This document shows positions 28,070-41,254 of a DNA stretch of 64,000 nucleotides, one piece after another. The position numbers and the translations under genes were made by a program. Every line of letters starts with the position of its first letter. Within the stretch, counting starts at the first letter, position 1. Below the pieces are notes generated by a model, which saw only the letters and a program-made list of their open reading frames with translations, did no database searches and was not told the origin of the DNA. Source of the stretch: Thermodesulfobacteriota bacterium (GTDB lineage: Bacteria > Desulfobacterota_D > UBA1144 > Nemesobacterales > JAJCZQ01); assembly GCA_965215275.1 (NCBI GenBank), contig OZ244044.1:1408001-1472000 (forward strand), written 5' to 3'.

Positions 28070-28190
28070 ATCCTAATTCTAATTGAAGTTTCCATTTGTG
28101 AAAACAGATAATTAACTATACGGGTTTTAAGGTCGTTCGTCAGGGTTAGTTTTCTTGACAATTGACAGTACGTATTTAACCTTATGTGTC

Positions 28191-28547
28191 ATGCCGGCAG
28201 ACTATATTCCCGTGTTGCTCGTTATTATATTTGCTGTTTTTCTGGCCTCGTTGTTCGTTACTGTATCTTACTTTCTGGGTCCCAGGCGGCACAGGGACAG
28301 GAAACTGACCCCTTATGAATCCGGTATAGATCCCGTAGGGGATGCGAGAGAGAGATTTTCACTGAAATACTATCTGATAGGTGCTCTTTTTATTTTATTT
28401 GACGTGGAGGCGGTTTTTCTGTTCGTGTGGGCAGTGGTTTTCAGAGACCTTGGAATGCTTGCATTTATTGAGATAGTGGTATTTTTGATCATTATACTTA
28501 CTGGATACTATTACGTGTTAAGGAAAGGAGTTTTAGAATGGGATTGA
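28191..28547 (+). CDS. nuoA: NADH-quinone oxidoreductase subunit A
   Basis: [20 protein letters not shown]; likely ATG at 28191. Confidence 0.95.
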
Positions 28548-29023
28548 ACGCTGAATCACTTCTTGGTGGAGAGGGATTTCTTACAACAAAGGTCTCCGCC
28601 ATTGCAAACTGGGGAAGAAAGAACAGTTTATGGCCTATGCCGTTCGGAACCGCGTGTTGTGCGATCGAGATGATGGGAGTTTTTTCCTCAAGGTTCGATC
28701 TTTCCAGATTTGGTGCCGAAGTGGCAAGGTTTTCGCCAAGACAGGCAGATCTTATGATCGTTTCAGGAACTATTACCTATAAGATGGCGTCCGTGTGCAG
28801 GAAGATATATGATCAGATGCCGGAACCCAAGTGGGTAATTGCAATGGGTTCGTGCACCTGCGGAGGCGGTCCTTTTGACAGCTATGCAGTTGTTCAGGGT
28901 ATTGATGAGTTCCTGCCGGTCGATGTGTACGTAGGTGGGTGTCCTCCAAGGCCTGAAGCATTGATCGATGCCGTAATGAAAATGCAGAAAAAGATCGATA
29001 TTGAAGGGGCGCCAGTAGTATGA
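28538..29023 (+). CDS. nuoB: NADH-quinone oxidoreductase subunit B
   Basis: [22 protein letters not shown]. Confidence 0.97.
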
Positions 29024-29541
29024 CCGACGTTTCATCTGCTATAAAACATGAAATAAACGACAGGCTTGGTTCTTATTTTTTATCATCGCTGGAGTTCAGA
29101 AAGGAATCAACGTTCTATATCGACCCCTCAAACGTGTTAGAAGTACTTAGTGTTTTAAAAAACGAGCTGGGATTTATTTACCTTGCTGACCTGACGGCGG
29201 TGGATTATCTTGAGATCAAATCCTCGAGATTTGAAGTTGTGTACCATCTCTACAGATTTGGAAAGGAACATGAGGACAACTTCAGGATCAGGATCAAAAC
29301 CCCGCTTGCTGACGATAACCTCGTTGTAGATTCTGTAACCTCTGTATGGAGCGGTGCCAACTGGCTGGAAAGAGAGGTTTACGATATGTTCGGGATCGTT
29401 TTTAAAGGTCATCCTAATCTGCAGAGGATACTGATGCCGGAAGACTACGATGAATTTCCTCTGAGAAAGGATTTCGACGTAAGGAACAGAGAGCCGTCCA
29501 AGAGATCTTTTAAAAAAGCTCTGAAAGAAGGGAATTTTTAG
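29020..29541 (+). CDS. nuoC: NADH-quinone oxidoreductase subunit C
   Basis: [21 protein letters not shown]. Confidence 0.95.
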
Positions 29542-30771
29542 ATGGAAAGAGTGGAGTTTATCACAGAACAGCGGGATCGGGATATGGATTCGGGATTAAG
29601 GCAGGAAACCATGATATTGAACATGGGTCCTCAGCATCCCGCCACCCATGGCGTTCTAAGGGTAGTTCTTTATCTTGACGGTGAAGTGGTTCAGGAAGCC
29701 GTTCCGTACGTGGGATATCTGCACAGAGGGATAGAGAAGCTGTGCGAACATATAACCTATCAGCAATGCCTTCCCTATACCGACCGTATGGACTATATTG
29801 CCTCAATATGTAATAACATAGGCTTTATTCTGTCCGTTGAAAAGCTCCTGGGTATCGAAGATGAGATCCCTGCCAGGGCAAAGGTTACCGAAGTCATACT
29901 GTCCGAACTGGGGAGAATAGAGTCCCATCTCATCGGTATTGGTACAAATGCAATGGATATGGGTGCGATGAGCGCTTTTCTTTTCTGCTTCAAGGAACGG
30001 GAAAGGATCTACGATATTCTGGAGATGGTATGCGGTGCCAGATTGACGACTTCATATCCAAGGGTAGGAGGCTTACCTTCCGACCTTCCGGATGGTTTTA
30101 AGTCAGCAATTGAAAATTTCCTTAAGATCTTTCCAAAAACGTTGAACGAAGTTGATAAGCTCCTGACGAGAAACAGGATATGGATAGAAAGAACAAAAGG
30201 CGTTGCGTGTATAAGTGCCGAAGATGCCATTGATCTGGGTCTGACGGGTCCGGCTCTGAGGGGAAGCGGGGTTCCTTTTGATCTCAGAAAGTCCGCCCCT
30301 TATCTGGATTATCAGAATTACGATTTTGAAGTGCCGGTTGCAACTGACGGTGACGCGTATTCAAGATATCTGTGCCGTATGGAAGAAATGAGACAGAGTC
30401 TCATGATAATCGAGCAGGCCGTAAACAACCTGCCGGATGGTCCCTACATTGCTGATCTTCCCGATATAGTGCTTCCGGAAAAGCAGAAGGTATACACTCA
30501 GATGGAATCGCTGATAAGACATTTTGTTATCGTCTATAACGGTTTTAAAGCTCCCAGTGGCGAGATATATCATGCAGTTGAGAACCCGAAAGGGGAACTT
30601 GGCTACTACATTGTAGGTGATGGTTCAGGAAAACCTTACAGAATTCACGTAAGAGGTCCGTCTTTCGTTAATTTACAGGCGCTTCCTCTGATGGTGAAGG
30701 GAAGATTATTAGCAGACGTAATTGCGGCGATCGGAAGTATAGATATAGTACTGGGAGAGGTTGACAGGTAG
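29542..30771 (+). CDS. nuoD: NADH-quinone oxidoreductase subunit D
   Basis: NMGPQHPATHGVLR, GYLHRGIEK, DIVLGEVDR. Confidence 0.97.
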   Translation: MERVEFITEQRDRDMDSGLRQETMILNMGPQHPATHGVLRVVLYLDGEVVQEAVPYVGYLHRGIEKLCEHITYQQCLPYTDRMDYIASICNNIGFILSVEKLLGIEDEIPARAKVTEVILSELGRIESHLIGIGTNAMDMGAMSAFLFCFKERERIYDILEMVCGARLTTSYPRVGGLPSDLPDGFKSAIENFLKIFPKTLNEVDKLLTRNRIWIERTKGVACISAEDAIDLGLTGPALRGSGVPFDLRKSAPYLDYQNYDFEVPVATDGDAYSRYLCRMEEMRQSLMIIEQAVNNLPDGPYIADLPDIVLPEKQKVYTQMESLIRHFVIVYNGFKAPSGEIYHAVENPKGELGYYIVGDGSGKPYRIHVRGPSFVNLQALPLMVKGRLLADVIAAIGSIDIVLGEVDR

Positions 30772-30814
30772 TTGATCCTTTCAGATGACAAAATAAAACA
30801 GGTCCTTACCGTTC

Positions 30815-31600
30815 ATGTATAACAATATATTAAGCCGTTTACGATTTTTACCTTTCATAATGGTGATGCTTGCGTCTTGTTTATGGCTGCGGACGTCAGA
30901 TGCGGTCGAGATGAAAGGTCTTTACCTGGGAGGAGCGGTCGGCAGTCAGTATACGGACGTAAGTTATGAGAAATCCGTAGGGGTAGACGTGCCGTCACCT
31001 TCTTTTGCTGCGGCAGAGGACGACTCTCAGACTGGCGTTAATTTTCTTAAGGTTTTGATCGGACACCGCTGGAACCTGACCAAAAAGGCGTATTTATCAG
31101 GTGAGATCGACGCTGCGATAGGTTTGGGTAACCGTATAAAGGGGTTTCTTGAAGAAGGCACTGGGTTTGATAGCCGCGACGTCTGGCCTGGAGCCTGGTA
31201 TCTTGAAGAGAACTTCAGTCTGGGGTTTAATGCTAAACTGGGATACTTACCTGGCGAGGTCGATATTCTGGGAAGAGGGGGTTCGCTTTATCTGCTTGCC
31301 GGAATACGGTGGTTAGACCTGACGGTGGAGGACGCTTATCAAAATTCCGTGTCCAACATCTCGGGCAGATTAAACGAAGACCTGTCCGCAGTTCCATGGC
31401 TTGTCGGTGCTGGCGTGGAATTTGGAACTGAGAAAAATCGGATCGATCTGCAGGTAAGCTACGTCTCATATGAGGTCGATTTTGGTTCTGGAGACGGTGT
31501 GCTAGATACTTCTCCGAGGCTCAACCACGAGTTTGCCGTTCAGAAATGGAGTATATCTCTGGGGTACAACTGGTATTTTAGAGTTGATCAGGACCTTTAA
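30815..31600 (+). CDS. Outer-membrane beta-barrel protein (Omp25/31-like)
   Basis: Signal peptide, GLYLGGAVG, VGAGVEFG, C-terminal SLGYNWYF. Confidence 0.65.
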   Translation: MYNNILSRLRFLPFIMVMLASCLWLRTSDAVEMKGLYLGGAVGSQYTDVSYEKSVGVDVPSPSFAAAEDDSQTGVNFLKVLIGHRWNLTKKAYLSGEIDAAIGLGNRIKGFLEEGTGFDSRDVWPGAWYLEENFSLGFNAKLGYLPGEVDILGRGGSLYLLAGIRWLDLTVEDAYQNSVSNISGRLNEDLSAVPWLVGAGVEFGTEKNRIDLQVSYVSYEVDFGSGDGVLDTSPRLNHEFAVQKWSISLGYNWYFRVDQDL

Positions 31601-31681
31601 AAGGTGCCTTTAAAAAAAGGATTAATCAGTCAGAGCTTTTAATAGTGGTCAACTCAGCGATTTTTATGTATTTATTAGTCT

Positions 31682-33463
31682 ATGGGTAATGACCTCCCTT
31701 TTTTCTCTCAGCTTGATAAGATCGATTGGTTTATAATCCTTGCTTATATTCTGATCACTCTTCTGGTGGGGGTCTATTTTAGAAAAAAAGCCGGCAGTGA
31801 CGTTTCTTCTTACTTCGTATCAGGAAGGAACTTGCCATGGTGGCTGCTCGGTACGTCAATGGTCGCAACGACATTCGCAGCTGATACTCCACTTGCCGTA
31901 AGTGGCTGGATAAGGACCGAAGGGATCTGGAAAAACTGGTTCTGGTGGAATTACGTTTTCAGTCACGTGTTCATTATTTTTGTATTTTCAAGATTGTGGA
32001 GAAGGTCAGAGGTACTGACGGACAACGAACTCATTGAGTTCAGGTACAGCGGGAGGCCGGCTGCTTTTTTAAGAGGTTTCAAGGCTTTTTATTTTTCCAC
32101 TATATTTAACTTTATCGTTATAGGGTGGGTAGTATCAGCAATGTCAAAAGTTCTTGGAGTGTTCTTTGGTATTGACAAGGTTTATGCTGTAACGGTATGT
32201 CTGGGTATTGCCTTTTTCTACACAATGCTCTCGGGGCTCTGGGGTGTTGTCGTAACCGATTTTATCCAGTACTTTCTGGCACTTGTCGGGACCGTTCTTC
32301 TTGCCGTTATTGTGGTGAACTCTCCGGAAATAGGTGGTTATTCTTCATTTATTGAAAAGCTAAATGATATTGACGGTAAACATTTGAAGATGTTTATATC
32401 TTCATGCGACACCTGTAATGAGACAGGTTTTATATCGTCTGATCTGTTTACTTTTCTGATATTTGTCACGGTTGTTTGGTGGTCTTCTCATAATGCTGAT
32501 GGAGGTGGATATTTTATTCAGAGGTTTTTATCTGCAAAGAATGAAAAACATGCTGTTTTGGGAATGATCTGGTTTGTATTTAATCACTACATAGTGAGGT
32601 TCTGGCCATGGGTTGTTGTGGCAGTTGCATCGCTGATCGTATATCCAGTCCCTGAAGTTACCTCGGGAGATCAGGAGACCATTTACGTCTTGATGATAAG
32701 AGAGTTTTTAGGTCCTGGATTAAAAGGACTGTTACTCGTGACGTTCATTGCGGCGTTTATGTCCACCATCTCGACGCAGCTCAACCTGGGTGCATCCTAT
32801 TTGCTGAACGATGTTTACAGGAGGTTTATTAATAAAAACGGTTCTGATGCCCACTACGTTTCAGCATCCAGACTCCTTACCTTTTTGCTAACAGTTGTAT
32901 CGGGGATCATAGCTTTTCAGATCAAGAATATCGGAGACGCATGGATATTTGTCTGGGCAATGAGTTCCGGTATAGGGTTAGTTCTGATATTGAGATGGTT
33001 TTGGTGGAGAATAAACGCATGGTCGGAAATAGCTGCACTTTCATCGTCTCTGTTCTCAATTCTGCTCATTATAGTTTTTACCAGATACATGGGATATGAT
33101 CTGGAGTTTAAATATCAGGTGCTTGTGATCCCTATATCTATAACGTGCTGGGTTATTGCCACGTTTGTAACGGCTCCCGAACCGAAAGAGAAGCTCGGAG
33201 AGTTCTATCAGAAGGTCAGACCTTGGGGGTTCTGGTCGCCGATTTCAAGTATAAGGCCTGAGGTCAGGGTGTCTTCTTTCTTCCCGGTATTGATCAATTG
33301 GCTTCTGGGAAACTGTGCAGTGATCGCCGCATTAACTGGAACTGGTAAGGTAATCTTTGGAAAATTTAATGAAGGTGTTCTTTTGATAGCTTTATCTTTG
33401 TTTGTATCATCGGTACTTTTCTTTCGCTTAAAGAAAGATTTTTCTGGTTCTGATGTTAAATAA
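31682..33463 (+). CDS. Sodium:solute symporter family protein
   Basis: YFVSGRNLPWW, ATTFAADTP, AAFMSTIS; many TM helices. Confidence 0.9.
   Translation: MGNDLPFFSQLDKIDWFIILAYILITLLVGVYFRKKAGSDVSSYFVSGRNLPWWLLGTSMVATTFAADTPLAVSGWIRTEGIWKNWFWWNYVFSHVFIIFVFSRLWRRSEVLTDNELIEFRYSGRPAAFLRGFKAFYFSTIFNFIVIGWVVSAMSKVLGVFFGIDKVYAVTVCLGIAFFYTMLSGLWGVVVTDFIQYFLALVGTVLLAVIVVNSPEIGGYSSFIEKLNDIDGKHLKMFISSCDTCNETGFISSDLFTFLIFVTVVWWSSHNADGGGYFIQRFLSAKNEKHAVLGMIWFVFNHYIVRFWPWVVVAVASLIVYPVPEVTSGDQETIYVLMIREFLGPGLKGLLLVTFIAAFMSTISTQLNLGASYLLNDVYRRFINKNGSDAHYVSASRLLTFLLTVVSGIIAFQIKNIGDAWIFVWAMSSGIGLVLILRWFWWRINAWSEIAALSSSLFSILLIIVFTRYMGYDLEFKYQVLVIPISITCWVIATFVTAPEPKEKLGEFYQKVRPWGFWSPISSIRPEVRVSSFFPVLINWLLGNCAVIAALTGTGKVIFGKFNEGVLLIALSLFVSSVLFFRLKKDFSGSDVK
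33456..33463 (+). repeat. Left copy of 8-bp target-site duplication TTAAATAA
   Basis: Identical copy at 34783-34790, directly outside the right TIR. Confidence 0.85.
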
Positions 33464-33496
33464 TGGAATTATATAGTTAAGTTGACAAGAAAGAAC

Positions 33497-33525
33497 TTGT
33501 AAAATTGGTCAGAAAATGGTAGTAT
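33497..33525 (+). promoter_or_regulatory. Candidate sigma70 promoter giving a leaderless tnpB transcript
   Basis: TTGTAA (33497-33502), 17-bp spacer, TG-g-TAGTAT (33517-33525); ATG begins 7 nt later; no SD. Confidence 0.5.
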
Positions 33526-33531
33526 TATAGC

Positions 33532-34755
33532 ATGGTTAGAACGATTACAAGAACTGTAAAGGCAGATAGTGGTTTTCATAAAAGGCTGGATGAATTCTTA
33601 AATCAGCTTACCGATCTGTATAACAGTGCCTTGTACCATAGGTTAAAATCCTGGGATTGGTATGGAAGAACTATCTCTAAATACGAACAGTTTAACGAAC
33701 TAACTGAGGTCCGAGAGCAAGACAAGGGATTTGAAAAGTTTAATGCGGTAGCTCAAAGAAGCGTTCTGGAAAGACTGGATAATGCATATAGTCCTTATTT
33801 GAGCTATTTAAGGAATAAAAAAGCAGGTAAGAAGGTAAGGAAGGTTGGCAGACCTAAATATAAAAGTTCAAACAGACCAGTTCGTTCATTTGAAACAAAC
33901 AATTATAAAAACATAAAGAAGACAGGCAGAAGAACATATTTAACGATAAAGGGACTTGGCAGATTATCTTTCAAAGGTAGTATGCCAGAGTGTGTTTGTT
34001 TGAAAGCACCTAAAACAATAATAAGAGTAATTCAAAGTTCGTTAAGAATTAAGCTCCAGTTTCTGTGTGAGTTTACAGATGAGAAGAAGAGACCTTTGGA
34101 TAAATCCATAGGGATAGATCTTGGAATAACAAACAGATTAGCTTTTTCAGATGGAACTAAAGTTCCCGGTATCAGGATAGACAGGAAGGAACTGAAAAGA
34201 AAGCAAAGAATTGTTTCAAGAGCGGTAAAAGGTTCTGACAGCAGAAAGAAGAAAGTTTTATCGTTAGCGAAGGAATGGGAACGAACTACCGATCGTGAAA
34301 ATAATGCTATACACAGATTAACAACAGAGACCGTAAAGAAGAGTAATCATATAAAATTAGAGGATTTGAATATACAAGGAATGGTAAAGAACCATCATCT
34401 TGCTAAATCCATAACGGAACAGCAATGGGGTAAGATCAAACATCAACTTGCTTACAAAGCCGAGATAGCTGGAGGCAAGCTGGTTTTAGTTAAAGCTCAT
34501 TATACAACAAGAGCCTGTTCTGAATGTGGAAAGATAAATCCAAAACTGCCTTTGTATCAAAGAGTATTTAACTGTATATATTGCGGTTATTCAGAAGACA
34601 GGGATATAAATGCAGGTAAAAATATCAATACTCTTAATGAAGGAGACTTCATGTCGGGCGGGAATAAGGTAGCAATACTCCCGATGAGTGCTAAGAGTAT
34701 CAGATCAAAAGAGAACAGGGATAGAGGAACTCTGCACTCAGAACAGTATAGGTAA
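33532..34755 (+). CDS. tnpB: RNA-guided endonuclease TnpB family protein
   Basis: LYNSAL helix, GRPKYK, RuvC-I GIDLG, RuvC-II LEDLNI, Zn finger CSECG/CIYCG, RuvC-III DRDINAGKNI. Confidence 0.93.
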   Translation: MVRTITRTVKADSGFHKRLDEFLNQLTDLYNSALYHRLKSWDWYGRTISKYEQFNELTEVREQDKGFEKFNAVAQRSVLERLDNAYSPYLSYLRNKKAGKKVRKVGRPKYKSSNRPVRSFETNNYKNIKKTGRRTYLTIKGLGRLSFKGSMPECVCLKAPKTIIRVIQSSLRIKLQFLCEFTDEKKRPLDKSIGIDLGITNRLAFSDGTKVPGIRIDRKELKRKQRIVSRAVKGSDSRKKKVLSLAKEWERTTDRENNAIHRLTTETVKKSNHIKLEDLNIQGMVKNHHLAKSITEQQWGKIKHQLAYKAEIAGGKLVLVKAHYTTRACSECGKINPKLPLYQRVFNCIYCGYSEDRDINAGKNINTLNEGDFMSGGNKVAILPMSAKSIRSKENRDRGTLHSEQYR

Positions 34756-34765
34756 GTTTGTCTAC
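34625..34765 (+). ncRNA. Putative omegaRNA (TnpB guide scaffold) overlapping the tnpB 3' end
   Basis: Stems ATACTCTTA/TAAGAGTAT, ATGAAG-GAGA-CTTCAT, TCGGG/CCCGA, GTA-GCAA-TAC, and crossing pair TGAGTGC/GCACTCA; boundaries approximate. Confidence 0.55.
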
Positions 34766-34782
34766 TTAACTATATAATTCCC

Positions 34783-34790
34783 TTAAATAA
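34783..34790 (+). repeat. Right copy of 8-bp target-site duplication TTAAATAA
   Basis: Identical to 33456-33463. Confidence 0.85.
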
Positions 34791-34822
34791 GTTCATCTTA
34801 TGTGTTAAATTAAATACTGATC

Positions 34823-35416
34823 ATGGCTATAAAAGTAAAAGAAGTTCAACCGCCAAAACTCAGTTTTTTTGAGAAGTTGTATTTTCCACAGATATTTGGG
34901 GGTTTATGGATTACTTTGAAGCACCTTTTGGGATTTAACCCTATCACGGTTCAGTATCCGGAAGAGGTGAAAGAGCTTCCTCCAAATTATAGAGGTCTTC
35001 ACATTATGCCTGGTGATGATAATGGAGAGATCAGGTGTGTAGCATGTAAGTTGTGTGAAGTAGCTTGTCCGACGCAGGCAATATCGATCGTTGCTGAAGC
35101 TGCCGATGATTACGGGATTGAAAGACGACCTAAGGTATATAACATAGATTTTATGCGCTGCGTCTTTTGTGGTTTTTGCGTTGAGGCATGTCCGTGCGAT
35201 GCTTTAAGAATGGGTATGAAATATGAACTTGCGGCTTACAGCAGGGCAGGTCTTGTTCATACTAAAGAAGTTTTCTTTACCCCTAATGTCAAAAGTGATG
35301 CTCCTAGAGATAACGCAAACTACTTGTACGAGATGCAAAAAGGGGATATTTTGGATAATTTTGACATTGTTGAAAAAGTTAAGGAACTAGATGGGAAATA
35401 TCTACGCAAGTTGTGA
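34823..35416 (+). CDS. nuoI: NADH-quinone oxidoreductase subunit I
   Basis: TVQYPEE, CVACKLCEVACP, CVFCGFCVEACP (two 4Fe-4S clusters). Confidence 0.93.
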   Translation: MAIKVKEVQPPKLSFFEKLYFPQIFGGLWITLKHLLGFNPITVQYPEEVKELPPNYRGLHIMPGDDNGEIRCVACKLCEVACPTQAISIVAEAADDYGIERRPKVYNIDFMRCVFCGFCVEACPCDALRMGMKYELAAYSRAGLVHTKEVFFTPNVKSDAPRDNANYLYEMQKGDILDNFDIVEKVKELDGKYLRKL

Positions 35417-35417
35417 A

Positions 35418-36774
35418 GTTGTGAATAGCGGGCAGGTTTCAGTCAGTTACAATGGAGGAACAAAATGAGTATAGCAAACAACGGTTGTGAATAGCGGGCA
35501 GGTTTCAGTCAGTTACAATTAATTCCAGTAATAGAACTATCAGATACTTGTTGTGAATAGCGGGCAGGTTTCAGTCAGTTACAATGGTCCGCAGACGAGA
35601 TGCTAAAGGGGATCGAGTTGTGAATAGCGGGCAGGTTTCAGTCAGTTACAATACGAGCTGCAATGATGACTACGGCAATGAAGTTGTGAATAGCGGGCAG
35701 GTTTCAGTCAGTTACAATAAATGGAAAGAGAGTCACCGGCAATAACCGGTTGTGAATAGCGGGCAGGTTTCAGTCAGTTACAATTTTGGATGAACGGAGA
35801 GGAAGTCCCGAACGTTGTGAATAGCGGGCAGGTTTCAGTCAGTTACAATTTATCCGGATGCGTTTAACAATGGAGCGCCGTTGTGAATAGCGGGCAGGTT
35901 TCAGTCAGTTACAATTCTCTGCGGTAAGGTCAAACACATCATACTGTTGTGAATAGCGGGCAGGTTTCAGTCAGTTACAATAAATAACCGCGACTGTCTT
36001 TTCTTTCTTTAGTTGTGAATAGCGGGCAGGTTTCAGTCAGTTACAATCATCTTTTTTGATTATATCATACTCCTTTAGTTGTGAATAGCGGGCAGGTTTC
36101 AGTCAGTTACAATGTTTTAATCGTGGACGCATCATGCGCAGGTGTTGTGAATAGCGGGCAGGTTTCAGTCAGTTACAATAGTTATCCGTTTCGTCTATGT
36201 AGAGCGTGTGGTTGTGAATAGCGGGCAGGTTTCAGTCAGTTACAATTCGTCGTGCTCGCTGTGTCCTGGCTCTTCGTTGTGAATAGCGGGCAGGTTTCAG
36301 TCAGTTACAATGGCACTATTCAACCCCGCTTTCAACAATAGGTTGTGAATAGCGGGCAGGTTTCAGTCAGTTACAATTGGCGAGTTATTTATCTCCATGG
36401 CGGGAGTTGTTGTGAATAGCGGGCAGGTTTCAGTCAGTTACAATGCGTCCCGGCTCCAATGGAATAACTATAAAGTTGTGAATAGCGGGCAGGTTTCAGT
36501 CAGTTACAATAAAGGATGCTTTACAAACTTGGGACTTAAAGTTGTGAATAGCGGGCAGGTTTCAGTCAGTTACAATATAATCCTTGTCTGTTACGTTGTA
36601 ACTCTGGTTGTGAATAGCGGGCAGGTTTCAGTCAGTTACAATACGTTCTTCCATTCTAATACCCTCCCGGTTGTTGTGAATAGCGGGCAGGTTTCAGTCA
36701 GTTACAATAGCGACTCAATGTTCATGGGTCGGCCGGAAGTTGTGAATAGCGGGCAGGTTTCAGTCAGTTACAAT
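35418..36774 (+). CRISPR. Type II-C CRISPR array: 21 identical 36-bp repeats, 20 spacers of 29-31 bp
   Basis: Repeat GTTGTGAATAGCGGGCAGGTTTCAGTCAGTTACAAT with ~66-bp period; + orientation inferred from tracrRNA complementarity. Confidence 0.98.
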
Positions 36775-36824
36775 ACTTTGCCCGCAACTGCCCTGCCAGC
36801 AAGGGGTTGAGCTTCCCCAACAAA

Positions 36825-37154
36825 TTAAAAAAGAGATATTTGTTGGGGAGTTCTCTCTGGTTTTCTGTGTTTTTTTCCATAAAAAACTTGCATTCGTCCA
36901 AATTGTTTATCCGTTATAGTAATAACTCTAACTTCTCCACGAGGGGGTAAGGCATCTCTGATACGTCCTGAATGAACATAGGCGTTTTCCTCGCTTGCAC
37001 AATGTCTAGCATATACGGAAAACTGCATCATTATAAATCCATCTTGCATTAATGACTTTCTGAATTTTCCATAAGACCGTCTTGCCTGTTTTGTATCGGT
37101 TGGCAGGTCAAACATTACTATTACCCACAAAGTCCTATATCCTCCGAAAGCCAA
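36825..37154 (-). CDS. cas2: CRISPR-associated endoribonuclease Cas2
   Basis: VMFDLPT, FRKSLMQDGFIMMQFSVYAR, ITDKQF. Confidence 0.95.
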   Translation of the reverse strand: MAFGGYRTLWVIVMFDLPTDTKQARRSYGKFRKSLMQDGFIMMQFSVYARHCASEENAYVHSGRIRDALPPRGEVRVITITDKQFGRMQVFYGKKHRKPERTPQQISLF

Positions 37155-37157
37155 TTC

Positions 37158-38066
37158 TTACACCTCAATTCTCATCTGTTTGTTATCTATCAGTTCCGGA
37201 ATTTTCAATGCACTGGGTCCCTCCGAAAATGCTTTCTTCAAACTGACTGCCATGTGCTGGTTCGCGACTATCATGGGGAATTTGGCTGTTTCAAGCCGGA
37301 CATTTTCTGATAAAATGGACAGAAGTGATAATTTTGTCTTTTTGTCAAGTTCAGATATTCCAGATTCTTTCAATTCATAGACTTTTCTATCAACAAGAGG
37401 CCTTAATGGTTCCATTAGATCATCAGCGAGGCACATAGGGTTATATTGATTATGGTGATGAATGCCAAGTGCGGGATGAAGTCCAGTTCCACACAAAGAT
37501 CGGGCAACTGATGCCCTGACCAAGCTGTATCCATAGTTTAGTAAGGAGTTTATTCCGCCTTCTTTGTAATTTCTTGTAAAACCTTTGCCAAACAGTTTTA
37601 ACCAATATATTCTTGCCGCTTGTGCCTCTATATTTTCAGTGTCGCCACTTTTTATTCTTTTCTTCATTTTGGATAGAGGAGAAGGGTCTTTTTTTAAAAA
37701 AGATAAAGTTCGGGCTTGAGCTTCAGTTTTGGCAATTATTATTTTCTGCCAGAGTCGTTTTTTCAGTGGTTTTTTAACACTGGTTTGCATATTAAGAACT
37801 TTGCTGTGGGTGGAATTGCTGGCAATGGGCAATAAGATGGAAACCGGTAAATGTTTCTGGTCGCAGAAGACTATTGTGCAGTTGTTTTCCTGACACGATG
37901 CTATAAGACTTTGAGAAATTGTAATTGAAGGGTTAGCAAGTACCAATATACCCATGTCTTCTACGGGAACACTGCTATCATCCTCTCCTTCTTTTTTGAT
38001 GATCATCTGATAATTTCTCAGATGCAGGTGAGCGGGATTGCTAACCTCAATAATTCTTTTGATCAT
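37158..38066 (-). CDS. cas1: CRISPR-associated endonuclease Cas1 (type II)
   Basis: EAQAARIYW, NSLLNYGY, GIHHHN, LADDLMEPLRP. Confidence 0.97.
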   Translation of the reverse strand: MIKRIIEVSNPAHLHLRNYQMIIKKEGEDDSSVPVEDMGILVLANPSITISQSLIASCQENNCTIVFCDQKHLPVSILLPIASNSTHSKVLNMQTSVKKPLKKRLWQKIIIAKTEAQARTLSFLKKDPSPLSKMKKRIKSGDTENIEAQAARIYWLKLFGKGFTRNYKEGGINSLLNYGYSLVRASVARSLCGTGLHPALGIHHHNQYNPMCLADDLMEPLRPLVDRKVYELKESGISELDKKTKLSLLSILSENVRLETAKFPMIVANQHMAVSLKKAFSEGPSALKIPELIDNKQMRIEV

Positions 38067-41000
38067 TGGGGTGTTAAATTTTTGGAGATTAGGTGACCAA
38101 TAGCATTTAAGGATTCTTTTTTTACTTTATACTCTGCCATTAATGTGGAAGGTGATTTTGCCAGTTCCAGCCTCTTTTTTTCATCAAGAGGGAGTTTTTT
38201 GAAATCTTTGTCACTTCTTCCGTCTGTATGTATTCGTAATAACAGCTTAATACATTCTCCATTCTTTCCTCTATCAATTTTTCTTACTCTGTAGAAAAAT
38301 TTTTGTCCATCTTTTTGCACACTTACCATGTCGTTTATACATAAGGACATAATCAACTTCCAATCTTCTCCATGATCATTTTTTACGATTGGAGTTTTAT
38401 GAATTCTTATCCGCTTTGCAACTTCCATCGTAGTTACAACTTCACCTTTGAATTTCCCGGTTTTTTTGTTTTTTATAATTTCCACATGGTGATTGTTTCC
38501 ATAGATCATTACACCCAATATTTTTGCATTGTTTTCAATTTTTCTTTGACAATAAGATTGTTCATAAAATTCTTTTGTTCTCCAAACTCTTGCCCGCCGG
38601 ACAATATCTCCTGTTTTAGGATGTTTAAAAGGGTCTTCTTCTAATTTTTTTTGAGCAGTATTTAATCCACCTCTCATATTAACATAGGTTTCAAAACCTT
38701 CCTTGATTACCGGACATAGTATGTTTTTAAGGTCTTTATCCGTCATGTCAGTCAGATTTTTACGGACAACAATACCTGTCTTACCATTCTCTTTTCTTAT
38801 TCCATAAACCGTTTCTTCATGAAGTGCCCCCGTCAGTTTTCTGTTTGTCGAATGTGAAACGATCATTTGCTTTACAGCGTCTCCCAAACCCTCTCTAATA
38901 TCGTCAAGAGGTGGAGGGACTTCTATACCGTGTTCTGAAGGTATAGAAGCATCATCTGCCTTTGATGCAAGATGAACTATTTGTTTGTATAAACTGCGAT
39001 TTGTAAGTGCAATTACGGTTGCGTCAATTGCATGGTGTCTGTGATCCGTGCGTTCCTTTTTTTCAGTATCACCGAGAATACTGTTTAATCCCCACTGATG
39101 CCGAAGCCAGCCTGTTGCCCCACCTTTTGTGAACGTTACATCACAGCCAAGGGTTCTCATATATTTGCCAGTTTCTTTTGCAATGTAGCGTGCGTCGCTC
39201 AGTTGATTGTTGATAAAATCATCATCAATTTCTTCTGCCTGAATGTTTTTACGTTTTTTAGCAGGATAATTGTCGTTTGTTATTATGCCTTCAATAGTGT
39301 CCCACTGTGGCGTTTCTCCAAATGCTTCCCAAGGCGTTCTGTTGCCCTTCTTTTGGTTTTCTTCGGCTAAACACAAGACTTTGTTCATGTAAGAATTGTC
39401 AAGGGTTCTGCTGTATGGAAGTATATGATCTACTTCGGTCTCATGTGTCCATAAGGTTGTTAATTTGATTATTTTTCCGCTGTAGGAGCATTTCAACTCA
39501 CTTTCTTTCCACAACCTGTATTTTAATTTATCCTCATAATTTATATTTTCTCTGAGAGATAGATGAGGATTTTGTTCACGGATTTCTTTGTATCGTTCCT
39601 CTGCTTCCTCATTTGCCTTTGTGTTATCCTTTTGTGTTTGCAAATATCTTTTATACCTTTCGGTGTTCATTTCCAGGTCTCGTGCCATTTCTATACGTAT
39701 CGCGTTTGGTTTTCCATATTCCTTGATAATTGCATTTACAACGCGGCGAACTTCAAAAAGAGCTTTGGTAACTATAGGATTTGGGATAAAGGGTATTTCC
39801 CTAAGGATGTCTTTGTTGGCAGTTATAGGTTTCGTGATACCTTCGTATCCAGCGAGTTGAACGGCACCTTTTTCTTCAGTAAGTTCGCTTTCCTTATGAT
39901 AAACTCTGCCTTCTTTGAGATAAGGGAGGATTTTGTTAACTGCTTTCAACGATAGATTCCCATGCCCATTCTCCAGTTCCAGAACTGCAAGTTTTACTGC
40001 TTTTTCCAAGTCAAAATTCCAGTGATTTTTGAGTCGTTCTTTCAGTCCTTTTTTGGATTTGTAAGAAATCAGGTCTTCAACGAGCTGTTTCTGTTTTTCT
40101 TCGTTCCAAGAATCCCATTCATCTCCGATAATTTTCCTTATTTTACAAGCCGTTGTGTTTCCCTTGATACCTTTCCTGTTTTTTCCTTCGACTTTTTCCA
40201 GATTGAATTTCGTTTTCTTTTTCAGATCAAGCAGGTCCTTCTTTTTCAGAGCTGCCCATGTAAGACTTTCGTTCTTTTCCAGAGCTGCAGCTATCAGTTT
40301 TTTCTTCTCTAAAGTTGGCTTCACGTCTGTTTCCCCTGTCTCAAAGTCAAACCAGCTCAAATTGTTTATATCCTGCCAGTAGCGAAACTGTTGAAACTCC
40401 AGCCGTCCGAGATGAACTCTTTTTCTGCTTGGTTCAAGTGAACATTTCCCTATTGTTTTTCTGTCCCATTTTATTGGTCTTTGAAAAAATATAATTTTTT
40501 CAATAGCTTCTTTTATCTCTTTTGTGTAAAGGTTTGGATTGAGAGATGATTGTTTCGCAAAGATTTTGTCAAGCTCATCCTGATACATTTTTCTTTCTGT
40601 TCTTCGGTCGTGAAATTTTCCTCTGTTGCGTTTGCGGGACAACGTTGCAAGGTATTCCCCGACGGTTCTCATTCCTGCTTCTTCCATTTTTTCATAGAGT
40701 TCTGTAATATCTTTTTTGAAATCACTTTCTTCTTTATCGGATGGTTTTGCAGCATCAACTTCATCTTCCCTATCAAGAAATTCCTGCACTTCAGTATCTT
40801 CTCGCAGATCTCCAAATCCTGTCTTGCGACTGCTGAGAAATCCACGGCGTGTTCCCATGTGCAGTATCGCACGGCCAAATTCATAGGGTGACAGTTCTTC
40901 GTCCAGTGCTTTTGCCCTTATACGGTAAGGGTCTCCAAGTTCGTTAAGTTCAACTTCAGGACTGGGTTTTCCTTTAAGGGTATCAGGTAAAAATCCTTTG

Positions 41001-41254
41001 CTTATGAGATAGTTTCTCAAACGCGTCTTGCGTCTGTGGCGTCTTTCTATAACCCTTCTCATAAGACGCATATTGCGCCGCTTCTGATTTTTCGGAGTGG
41101 GTGTTTTATCTTCTACCGAACGGATAAATATGCGGCTTCCACAGTCAATTAGTTTTTCAGGTTTTCCATCTTGTTCCTCAACGACGCTCCAGCCGATGGA
41201 GTTCGTTCCCATGTCAATGCCCACCGAATACTCTTTCAGTTTGTTTTTTCCCAA
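38063..41254 (-). CDS. cas9: Type II-C Cas9 (1063 aa)
   Basis: RuvC-I GIDMGTNSIGW, Arg-rich bridge helix, IEMARD, HNH EVDHILPYSRTLDNSYMNKVL, RuvC-III HRHHAIDA; no csn2 or cas4 in the locus. Confidence 0.97.
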   Translation of the reverse strand: MGKNKLKEYSVGIDMGTNSIGWSVVEEQDGKPEKLIDCGSRIFIRSVEDKTPTPKNQKRRNMRLMRRVIERRHRRKTRLRNYLISKGFLPDTLKGKPSPEVELNELGDPYRIRAKALDEELSPYEFGRAILHMGTRRGFLSSRKTGFGDLREDTEVQEFLDREDEVDAAKPSDKEESDFKKDITELYEKMEEAGMRTVGEYLATLSRKRNRGKFHDRRTERKMYQDELDKIFAKQSSLNPNLYTKEIKEAIEKIIFFQRPIKWDRKTIGKCSLEPSRKRVHLGRLEFQQFRYWQDINNLSWFDFETGETDVKPTLEKKKLIAAALEKNESLTWAALKKKDLLDLKKKTKFNLEKVEGKNRKGIKGNTTACKIRKIIGDEWDSWNEEKQKQLVEDLISYKSKKGLKERLKNHWNFDLEKAVKLAVLELENGHGNLSLKAVNKILPYLKEGRVYHKESELTEEKGAVQLAGYEGITKPITANKDILREIPFIPNPIVTKALFEVRRVVNAIIKEYGKPNAIRIEMARDLEMNTERYKRYLQTQKDNTKANEEAEERYKEIREQNPHLSLRENINYEDKLKYRLWKESELKCSYSGKIIKLTTLWTHETEVDHILPYSRTLDNSYMNKVLCLAEENQKKGNRTPWEAFGETPQWDTIEGIITNDNYPAKKRKNIQAEEIDDDFINNQLSDARYIAKETGKYMRTLGCDVTFTKGGATGWLRHQWGLNSILGDTEKKERTDHRHHAIDATVIALTNRSLYKQIVHLASKADDASIPSEHGIEVPPPLDDIREGLGDAVKQMIVSHSTNRKLTGALHEETVYGIRKENGKTGIVVRKNLTDMTDKDLKNILCPVIKEGFETYVNMRGGLNTAQKKLEEDPFKHPKTGDIVRRARVWRTKEFYEQSYCQRKIENNAKILGVMIYGNNHHVEIIKNKKTGKFKGEVVTTMEVAKRIRIHKTPIVKNDHGEDWKLIMSLCINDMVSVQKDGQKFFYRVRKIDRGKNGECIKLLLRIHTDGRSDKDFKKLPLDEKKRLELAKSPSTLMAEYKVKKESLNAIGHLISKNLTPQ

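Follow-up and report, generated by a model that had tools for sequence, protein, structure and literature searches.

A TnpB-only element with IS1595-like ends and a one-sided insertion-site motif in a Thermodesulfobacteriota bacterium

Described TnpB systems and the place of this locus

A 2023 report (Altae-Tran, PMC10691335) described TnpB nucleases bounded by terminal inverted repeats (TIRs) and associated with DDE transposases, among them solo copies that are mobilised in trans. In the text of that report IS630 (DDE-6) is the only partner named and IS1595 occurs in the profile list only; section 6.2 of a 2026 review gives ISL2, IS630 and IS1031 as partners (PMC13565253). The locus described here shares with DDE-1 to DDE-6 the inverted terminal repeats around tnpB and solo tnpB genes that would be moved in trans. 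In DDE-5 systems TA lies 8 bp before the predicted end (PMC10691335, SI), and these systems are among the plasmid-enriched branches with rearranged catalytic sites (PMC10691335). The geometry is the same here, with a motif 8 bp upstream, and one tnpB family of the same genome (family C) also has TA (3/3). The clade of our element is, however, chromosomal, with canonical D/E/D residues and a G or TG motif; TA was found in 0/8 copies of its own family (family A), and the ten best-listed plasmid matches of the clade were 26-32% identical.

IS200/IS605 (IS1341-type solo tnpB) and IS607 elements, which have no TIRs or target-site duplications (TSDs) (PMC13565253), resemble the locus in the canonical TnpB fold with its RuvC triad and in an RNA, predicted here, that would cover the 3' end of the gene, close with a pseudoknot and take its guide from the flank. 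Their TAM is the target motif of the transposase, whereas transposase-only elements do not share the TAM-like motif found here. Fanzors are likewise TnpB-family nucleases inside TIR- and TSD-bounded DDE elements, with the 5' TSD contributing to the TAM and the 3' TSD located in the scaffold (PMC10711439; PMC13565253, section 6.2). Here, in contrast, the motif is found outside the TSD, which consists of eight variable bases and would form most of the guide seed. With passenger-carrying and non-autonomous IS1595 (ISNwi1-like) elements the locus has in common TIRs of about 25 bp starting with GGGA and an AT-rich 8-bp TSD; AT-rich 8-bp DRs are also found in ISApl4, and circle formation by an IS1595-family element was detected by inverse PCR (PMC12561309). 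It differs from them in having no transposase, in a predicted cargo RNA that uses the right TIR as structure and in a one-sided site motif which is absent from the transposase-bearing members.

The first-pass annotation had called this TnpB-transposon pairing atypical, which is an overstatement because TIR-bounded, trans-mobilised TnpBs had already been reported in 2023 (PMC10691335). The partnership has thus been known in outline since then, which limits the surprise, and the clade described here is a variant of it. A TnpB-IS1595 pairing was not found in the literature by title and start of abstract, nor was a pairing of TnpB with ISXO2, most subscription journals lying outside the search.

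The element, its nuclease and its copies

All positions refer to the window, the whole stretch of 64,000 nucleotides that was analysed, and all features lie on the + strand. The element of about 1.3 kb is delimited by a left TIR of IS1595 type (33464-33488) and a right TIR (34758-34782), each of 25 bp and 23/25 identical, and flanked by exact 8-bp copies of the TSD TTAAATAA (33456-33463 and 34783-34790). The left TIR starts with T, whereas G, the usual base, stands there in the seven other full copies. The tnpB gene (33532-34755, 407 aa) is the only ORF of at least 60 aa between the TIRs, so that a transposase gene, as expected of an autonomous IS, is missing. Coordinates and ORF content agree with the annotation on these points and also on its remark that the left TSD holds a host stop codon: an intact sodium:solute symporter gene (31682-33463) ends within the TSD, at 33461-33463. 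The right flank carries a host 4Fe-4S gene (34823-35416), presumably nuoI-like.

The protein matches PF07282 and PF01385, and scored 192 bits with the NCBIfam model guided_TnpB (cut-off 100). The RuvC triad that had been read as intact is present (D196, 34117-34119; E277, 34360-34362; D358, 34603-34605), together with the C4 zinc finger (C329/C332/C348/C351); no match to the HTH_OrfB Pfam model was obtained at the N-terminus. The structure model (pLDDT 82.7) gave ISFba1 TnpB (8iaz) as the best fold match (E 2.8e-22, TM 0.73). The dN/dS ratio of tnpB was 0.18-0.33 in 5/5 pairs (codons 1-320), and the gene is under purifying selection, as judged from these comparisons, with its RuvC residues intact.

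The genome contains eight full copies, seven of them at other loci, with 86-99% identity. Their TSDs have 0, 0, 0, 0, 1, 1, 2 and 4 mismatches, the last case fitting a one-base shift. A 326-bp derivative (G000:C1:1742862-1743187), which retains only the predicted guide-RNA part, occupies its own locus with the same end motif and an exact TSD. Two further TIR-bounded tnpB families (B and C) occur in the genome. Other genomes show the TIR and TSD arrangement at 48 distinct sites and this one in 20 elements; 52 of 182 homologous loci have it with at most one TSD mismatch. Among 49 close homologues from other genomes, 47 share the right-end motif and 27 have both ends and a TSD, which upholds the expectation that related TnpBs carry such ends at different loci. 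Near-identical, young copies exist as well (a 99.4% pair in this genome; L173-L175 in genome G041). The 60 more distant metagenome homologues (L069-L128), many on short contigs, gave one weak TIR and TSD call (L076), and viral contigs gave no match to the right-end pattern. Clade A/B and clade C were apart in fast trees, but two separate captures found no support, the joined tree having the higher likelihood (AU p 0.72).

The repeats around tnpB are not due to chance, as multiple copies with the same ends are found at unrelated loci. An ordinary IS605 or IS607 tnpB beside chance repeats, to which the canonical TnpB protein could point, is refuted by these multi-copy TIR and TSD data and retains practically no probability. 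The bit scores with NF038281 (IS200/IS605; 181, cut-off 425) and NF038280 (IS607; 106, cut-off 350) are below the cut-offs, the TIRs and TSDs are foreign to IS200/IS605, and the TSD and the lack of any PF00239 (serine recombinase) match in this genome set the element apart from IS607. The sole Y1 match in the genome is a lone gene of 271 aa, and its 3.3-kb locus holds no ORF for tnpB.

Twenty-eight matches to PF12762 (IS1595 transposase) were found in the genome, and 8/26 IS1595 loci examined have similar ends and an 8-bp TSD with at most one mismatch. In this genome, transposase-bearing IS1595 elements have ends of the GGGA.TTATA type and are flanked by 8-bp TSDs, and the NF033547 cut-off was passed by all three transposases scanned, two of which are from this genome. 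The ISNwi1 subgroup is defined in ISfinder by ggnnatTAT ends and a DDE motif with a downstream E/R; the right end here is GGGAATTAT, and D/D/E and E..R motifs were seen, which would fit a tentative placing in this subgroup. The element has TIRs shared with IS1595 transposase elements, the AT-rich 8-bp TSD and, elsewhere in its genome, IS1595 DDE transposases. Since tnpB stands alone between IS1595-type ends, the element is likely moved by an IS1595 transposase, and a non-autonomous IS1595-type element mobilised in trans, as the annotation had proposed, is the likely assignment in view of the ends of same-genome IS1595 elements and of the homologues and the missing serine recombinase. A complete transposase beside tnpB was found in none of the 182 loci (two contain fragments only), nor was an autonomous element with both genes found among them.

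The TIR differs from those of 13 transposase elements of this genome at 3-8 of 25 positions. The closest of these (3/25 mismatches) has a frameshifted transposase and the full-length elements differ at 4-8 of 25, both of which count against the explanation we favour below. An identical end was found in G041, where the 25-bp TIR of the IS1595 transposase element L264 is the same as the left TIR of the tnpB elements L173-L175; the L264 transposase stops early, at 277 aa, which also counts against that explanation.

The insertion-site motif and the predicted omega-RNA

Directly 5' of the left TSD lies TG (33454-33455), the predicted TAM or its core, and TG is found at this place in 7/8 copies of this genome. 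G occupies position -1 of the left TSD at 38/39 clade-A sites, in comparison with 8/39 at the mirror position (Fisher 6e-13) and 4/40 control ends (9e-17), the control set being small (20 elements; 11/35 of the relatives' hits with TIR and TSD; one composite without a transposase match). A TAM located outside the TSD is the best reading of this pattern. Among other TIR-like ends of this genome G was found at -1 in 10/116, and in 3/21 of the same TIR subtype. Position -1 is A in 8/8 copies of family B and the motif is TA in 3/3 of family C, although A at -1 is also frequent in the controls (56/116).

A particular IS1595 transposase that works on asymmetric ends could itself prefer such sites, and TnpB would then have adapted to the motif or be ordinary cargo. 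The TAMs of IS605 and IS607 match the target motif of their transposases (PMC10711439), G was found at left -1 in 3/11 IS1595 elements of relatives, and the cognate transposase is represented by candidates only. Nevertheless, we regard this as improbable, given the rarity of G at the control and same-subtype ends and the different motifs of three tnpB families in one genome despite similar TIRs. That the motif tracks the TnpB family and not the TIR would also agree with a TnpB-RNA complex that, bound at TAMs, directs the IS1595 transposase to adjacent positions and always in the same orientation. The motif is present at 38/39 sites, the young near-identical copies included, and tnpB-free elements persist at non-G sites, so that retention alone would need a very large lifetime advantage to yield 38/39, a point against the explanation favoured below. 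On the other hand, RuvC has kept its catalytic residues and evolves under purifying selection, the guide of a donor cannot match a new site, and the 182 loci hold no transposase in cis apart from the two fragments. Steering by TnpB is therefore unlikely in our judgement. The effectors of RNA-guided transposons are inactive, in contrast to the intact RuvC here; it is similarly doubtful that TnpB-directed insertion exactly one TSD-length from a TAM makes this element a minimal, nuclease-active forerunner of such transposons.

The predicted omega-RNA scaffold (34498-34782; fold z-score -2.7) overlaps the 3' end of tnpB, its 5' limit being taken from the 326-bp derivative. It contains a conserved stem (34653-34658 with 34680-34685). 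GGGAAT (34660-34665), at the start of the loop, is the predicted arm of a pseudoknot and is complementary to the six final bases of the element (34777-34782). The 4-bp core of the pseudoknot is nearly invariant and a fifth pair, formed in 52/75, covaries in part and weakly, which counts against the favoured explanation; an extension to the first TSD base was rejected, as that base and its supposed partner do not pair. In the predicted terminal hairpin (34747-34774), the internal arm is 34747-34757 and its partner, 34764-34774, falls within the right TIR. Cognate arm and TIR fold better than swapped pairs in 52/58 types and the hairpin is better on the sense strand in 58/60, counts that draw on related sequences and are hence not independent. 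Its mean energy is -6.7 kcal/mol versus -1.9 for left ends and -2.7 for IS1595 ends. By these folds a predicted RNA hairpin has the right TIR as one of its arms, and its other arm co-varies with the TIR. Rfam yielded no family and two chance matches, and a promoter scan gave 7 sites (4.6 +/- 2.4 expected), with no + strand site at the left end.

The predicted guide segment (34783-34800) comprises the right TSD and host flank, a role assigned because of the reRNA architecture in PMC10711439. The guide might instead lie inside the element, after a conserved GAACAG, and TnpB would then bind the TIRs of its own or sister elements as a regulator. The 11 bases past GAACAG do resemble the TIR interior and change together with the TIR; the same complementarity, however, makes a sense-strand hairpin using G-U pairs, the terminal bases have their pseudoknot partner in the conserved loop, and such a guide gives no account of the motif beyond the TSD. 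We give an internal guide very little credence. The predicted 16-nt guide of each of 20 copies had no TAM-flanked match elsewhere in the genome.

Empty insertion sites and the probable role of TnpB

In the explanation that we consider the most probable, and hold with reasonable though incomplete confidence, a transposase-free element with IS1595-type ends and an intact tnpB would be moved in trans, and its TnpB would cut the element's own insertion site where this is empty. An IS1595 DDE transposase without a G preference of its own would bind the TIRs and insert the element with an 8-bp duplication. The omega-RNA would be read across the right end, and as the TIR would be folded into the last hairpin and the pseudoknot, the guide would start at base 1 or 2 of the right TSD and run into the flank. 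An empty allele, be it on a sister chromosome, on incoming DNA or arising by precise loss through the TSDs, would set the TAM beside the full target, be cut, and be repaired from the filled copy or lost. The filled allele would escape since its left junction has the TAM with only eight matching bases and its right junction the target without a TAM; for TnpB a seed of about 12 bp is given in PMC13639567. Copies landing by chance beside a TAM would be kept or spread, hence the one-sided motif.

The exact empty site, which the annotation had suggested seeking in related genomes, was found in none of 40 relatives, 119 phylum genomes and 8 sequencing runs, and this counts against the favoured explanation. 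Only a colinear insertion-free junction with 63-66% identity was seen in two genomes of the same family. The left flank had no close match among the 119 phylum genomes, and no joint across the element was present in the 8 runs. In one run (X8), from a strain with flanks that diverge by about 3-4%, the contigs of both flanks continue into the TIRs, so that this strain also carries the insertion.

According to the 2026 review, the benefit of TnpB to a TSD-leaving DDE transposon seems small and its target recognition rigid (PMC13565253, section 6.2). The clade offers a testable case for such a benefit, with all parts in one genome: the predicted TAM is apparently not supplied by the transposase, and the guide seed would be the TSD. 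Self-protection would rest on a match of eight bases only, and the RNA hairpin must change together with the binding site of the transposase. For genome editing, the very short predicted TAM (NG, TG or TGT) on a nuclease of about 400 aa may be of interest as well.

The tnpB element and its insertion site

The element occupies window positions 33464-34782. Inspection of the sequence showed terminal inverted repeats (TIRs) identical at 23/25 positions and an exact 8-bp target site duplication (TSD; 33456-33463 and 34783-34790), and the sole ORF inside encodes a 407-aa TnpB with the catalytic residues D196, E277 and D358. The TIR- and TSD-bounded tnpB element is real, and the first-pass annotation, which described tnpB with intact RuvC D/E/D residues as the only gene between the repeats, was correct in these points. 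The AlphaFold model of the protein (pLDDT 82.7) had ISFba1 TnpB as its best fold match, and dN/dS of tnpB against five sister copies was 0.18-0.33.

No gene was broken by the insertion, since the stop codon of the sodium:solute symporter gene sits within the left TSD and the downstream gene begins 40 bases past the element. The exact empty allele, which the annotation proposed to look for, was not found in relatives, phylum genomes or sequencing runs, but the symporter and the next gene adjoin without an insertion in two same-family genomes; a third lacks the symporter at the corresponding locus. Within window positions 28155-35416, three features lie between the nuoABCD-like genes and the right-flank gene, presumably nuoI-like: a 261-aa gene that matches no Pfam family, the symporter gene and the tnpB element. 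In one same-family genome nuoD adjoins nuoI. Right after the right-flank gene (35418-41254), 21 repeats of 36 bp are followed on the minus strand by genes that, judged by sequence, are cas2, cas1 and a cas9 of 1063 aa; we take this to be a type II CRISPR-Cas locus. The longest match of its spacers elsewhere in the genome was 15-16 bases.

IS1595-type ends and distribution of the copies

The genome (G000; 1.99 Mb, single contig) contains 28 PF12762 matches. TIRs starting GGG(A/G) together with TSDs with at most one mismatch were present at 8/26 examined IS1595 loci, and the two proteins scanned passed the NCBIfam IS1595 cut-off. The annotation proposed a search for an IS1595 transposase with the same ends. 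The closest TIR in G000 (3/25 mismatches) belongs to an element with a frameshifted transposase. In another genome (G041), three tnpB elements have a left end identical to the 25-bp TIR of one transposase element, the transposase of which stops at 277 aa. The elements with a full-length IS1595 transposase have TIRs differing at 4-8 positions from that of the tnpB element. Judged by sequence, the tnpB element ends are IS1595 ends, and an IS1595 transposase very probably moves the element. No resolvase was found in G000, and the single Y1 transposase match is a lone gene, presumably for a REP-associated transposase. Five IS1595 elements (G000:C1:1002026-1005187, 1304051-1307389, 1516018-1519071, 675417-678070 and 1812584-1815955) have exact TSDs and, at 2.6-3.4 kb, would have room for passenger genes.

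The element belongs to family A, which has 8 full copies in G000 (86-100% identity) and a 326-bp derivative (G000:C1:1742862-1743187) with both ends, reduced otherwise to the final ~290 bases. This derivative has an exact TSD, TG upstream and the predicted omega-RNA only, with a promoter-like TTGACA ahead, and would need TnpB and transposase supplied in trans. Family B (8 copies, ~1.55 kb, ~40% protein identity) has at most two TSD mismatches in 4/8 copies, and family C (3 copies, ~28% protein identity) exact TSDs in 3/3. Two family-B elements lie back to back, 16 bases apart (G000:C1:1616480-1619604), the family-A copy at C1:1624687 has a further TIR-like end ~200 bases away, and a decayed tnpB with stops and no clear ends is interrupted by ~3.7 kb of other DNA (G000:C1:800771-805203).

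TnpB matches were obtained in 8/40 relatives and in 0/4 same-family genomes, one of these 80% complete. TIRs and a TSD were present at 52 of the 182 tnpB loci examined in other genomes (48 once duplicates were removed). Most of the 49 close homologues in the genome collection (L129-L175, L180 and L201; L177 excluded as a split match) belong to records whose titles name Ca. Dadabacteria or Thermodesulfobacteriota. Both ends together with a TSD were found for 27 of them and the right-end motif only for 20; 2 showed neither. Many homologous TnpBs at other loci do share TIRs and 8-bp TSDs, which the annotation had proposed to test. More distant, family-C-like TnpBs with the same ends occur in Paracoccaceae. 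For the L179 TnpB, from a Silicimonas record, the 8-bp TSD is exact and the TIRs are of another type, starting GGTAATG; this protein falls into a separate small clade. The 17 protein clusters P0005-P0021 belong to one and the same well-supported clade; 16 are without an N-terminal HTH Pfam match and one is labelled Gammaproteobacteria.

A motif on one side of the insertions

At 38/39 clade-A sites (8/8 in G000, 30/31 in relatives) a G immediately precedes the left TSD; the copy at C1:328826 was excluded for its shifted TSD (the plain register gives T). At the mirror position G occurs at 8/39 sites. It was found at 4/40 ends of 20 control elements without tnpB (of these, 11 derive from the 35 transposase hits of relatives and 8 from G000, and one is a composite lacking any transposase match) and at 10/116 other TIR-like ends in G000 (3/21 among the same TIR subtype). 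Family B has A at 8/8 sites (background 56/116), family C has TA at 3/3 (background 27/116), and Paracoccaceae elements have G in 10/10 versus 2/10. A symmetric transposase preference should leave its mark on either end and also on elements lacking tnpB, and neither was seen. Since the motif tracks the TnpB family, it points to a TnpB target motif (TAM). The first TSD base is skewed as well, being T in 8/8 family-A copies of G000 and variable in relatives, and may form part of the TAM.

Predicted RNA and proposed retention beside a putative TAM

The 5' limit of the predicted RNA, ~34498, was set by the part kept in the 326-bp derivative. The region has a fold z-score of -2.7 and no Rfam match. 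The loop of a conserved stem starts with GGGA, complementary to the terminal UCCC, which fits the pseudoknot described in TnpB reRNAs (PMC10711439); the pair next to this core is standard in 52/75 cases; two lineages show compensatory changes, to C-G and G-C, and the pair is broken in many cases. The ~11 bases just ahead of the right TIR are predicted to pair with the interior of this repeat. Cognate combinations folded better than swapped ones in 52/58 types and the sense strand was better in 58/60, counts which overstate independence because the rows are related; no such hairpin was found at left ends or transposase-element ends. The predicted pairing would put the end of the scaffold where the element ends, with the TSD plus flank as the guide. 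Terminal GGG at left ends is intact less often than CCC at right ends (37 versus 46 of 48 in relatives, 18 versus 20 of 20 in G000). This may be a bias, as the loci were located by their right ends; if not, it would agree with a right end constrained by the RNA and with copies that have lost mobility.

With an IS1595 transposase as the probable mover in trans, the proposed role of TnpB is to cleave the empty allele, in which the TAM lies directly beside the complete target. In the filled allele the match at the left junction is 8 contiguous bases long, shorter than the ~12-bp seed cited for TnpB (PMC13639567), and the right junction has the target without the TAM. Copies that sit next to a TAM would therefore be kept or could spread. 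Precise emptying of the donor site is plausible given the circles reported for an IS1595-family element (PMC12561309). The weak point of the retention mechanism is the strength of the effect: tnpB-free elements persist without a TAM, and 38/39 thus demands a large advantage for TAM-adjacent copies. This keeps alive both insertion directed by TnpB beside the TAM, which we consider improbable, and an equally improbable unseen transposase bias yielding a one-sided motif, the symmetric form of which is opposed by the lack of the motif on the mirror side and in tnpB-free elements.

The outline of TIR-bounded solo tnpB moved in trans by DDE transposases was already known: Altae-Tran 2023 (PMC10691335) described six TnpB branches associated with DDE transposases, with inverted ends and solo copies moved in trans, and for DDE-5 a TA motif that precedes the end by 8 bp. 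In the available text of that paper IS1595 appears in the profile list only, and a 2026 review (PMC13565253), as far as available, lists ISL2, IS630 and IS1031. Literature searches, judged from their listings, returned no paper on an IS1595-TnpB pair. Added here are the IS1595 assignment with partner ends, a test of the one-sided motif against controls, and the predicted TIR-coupled RNA hairpin.
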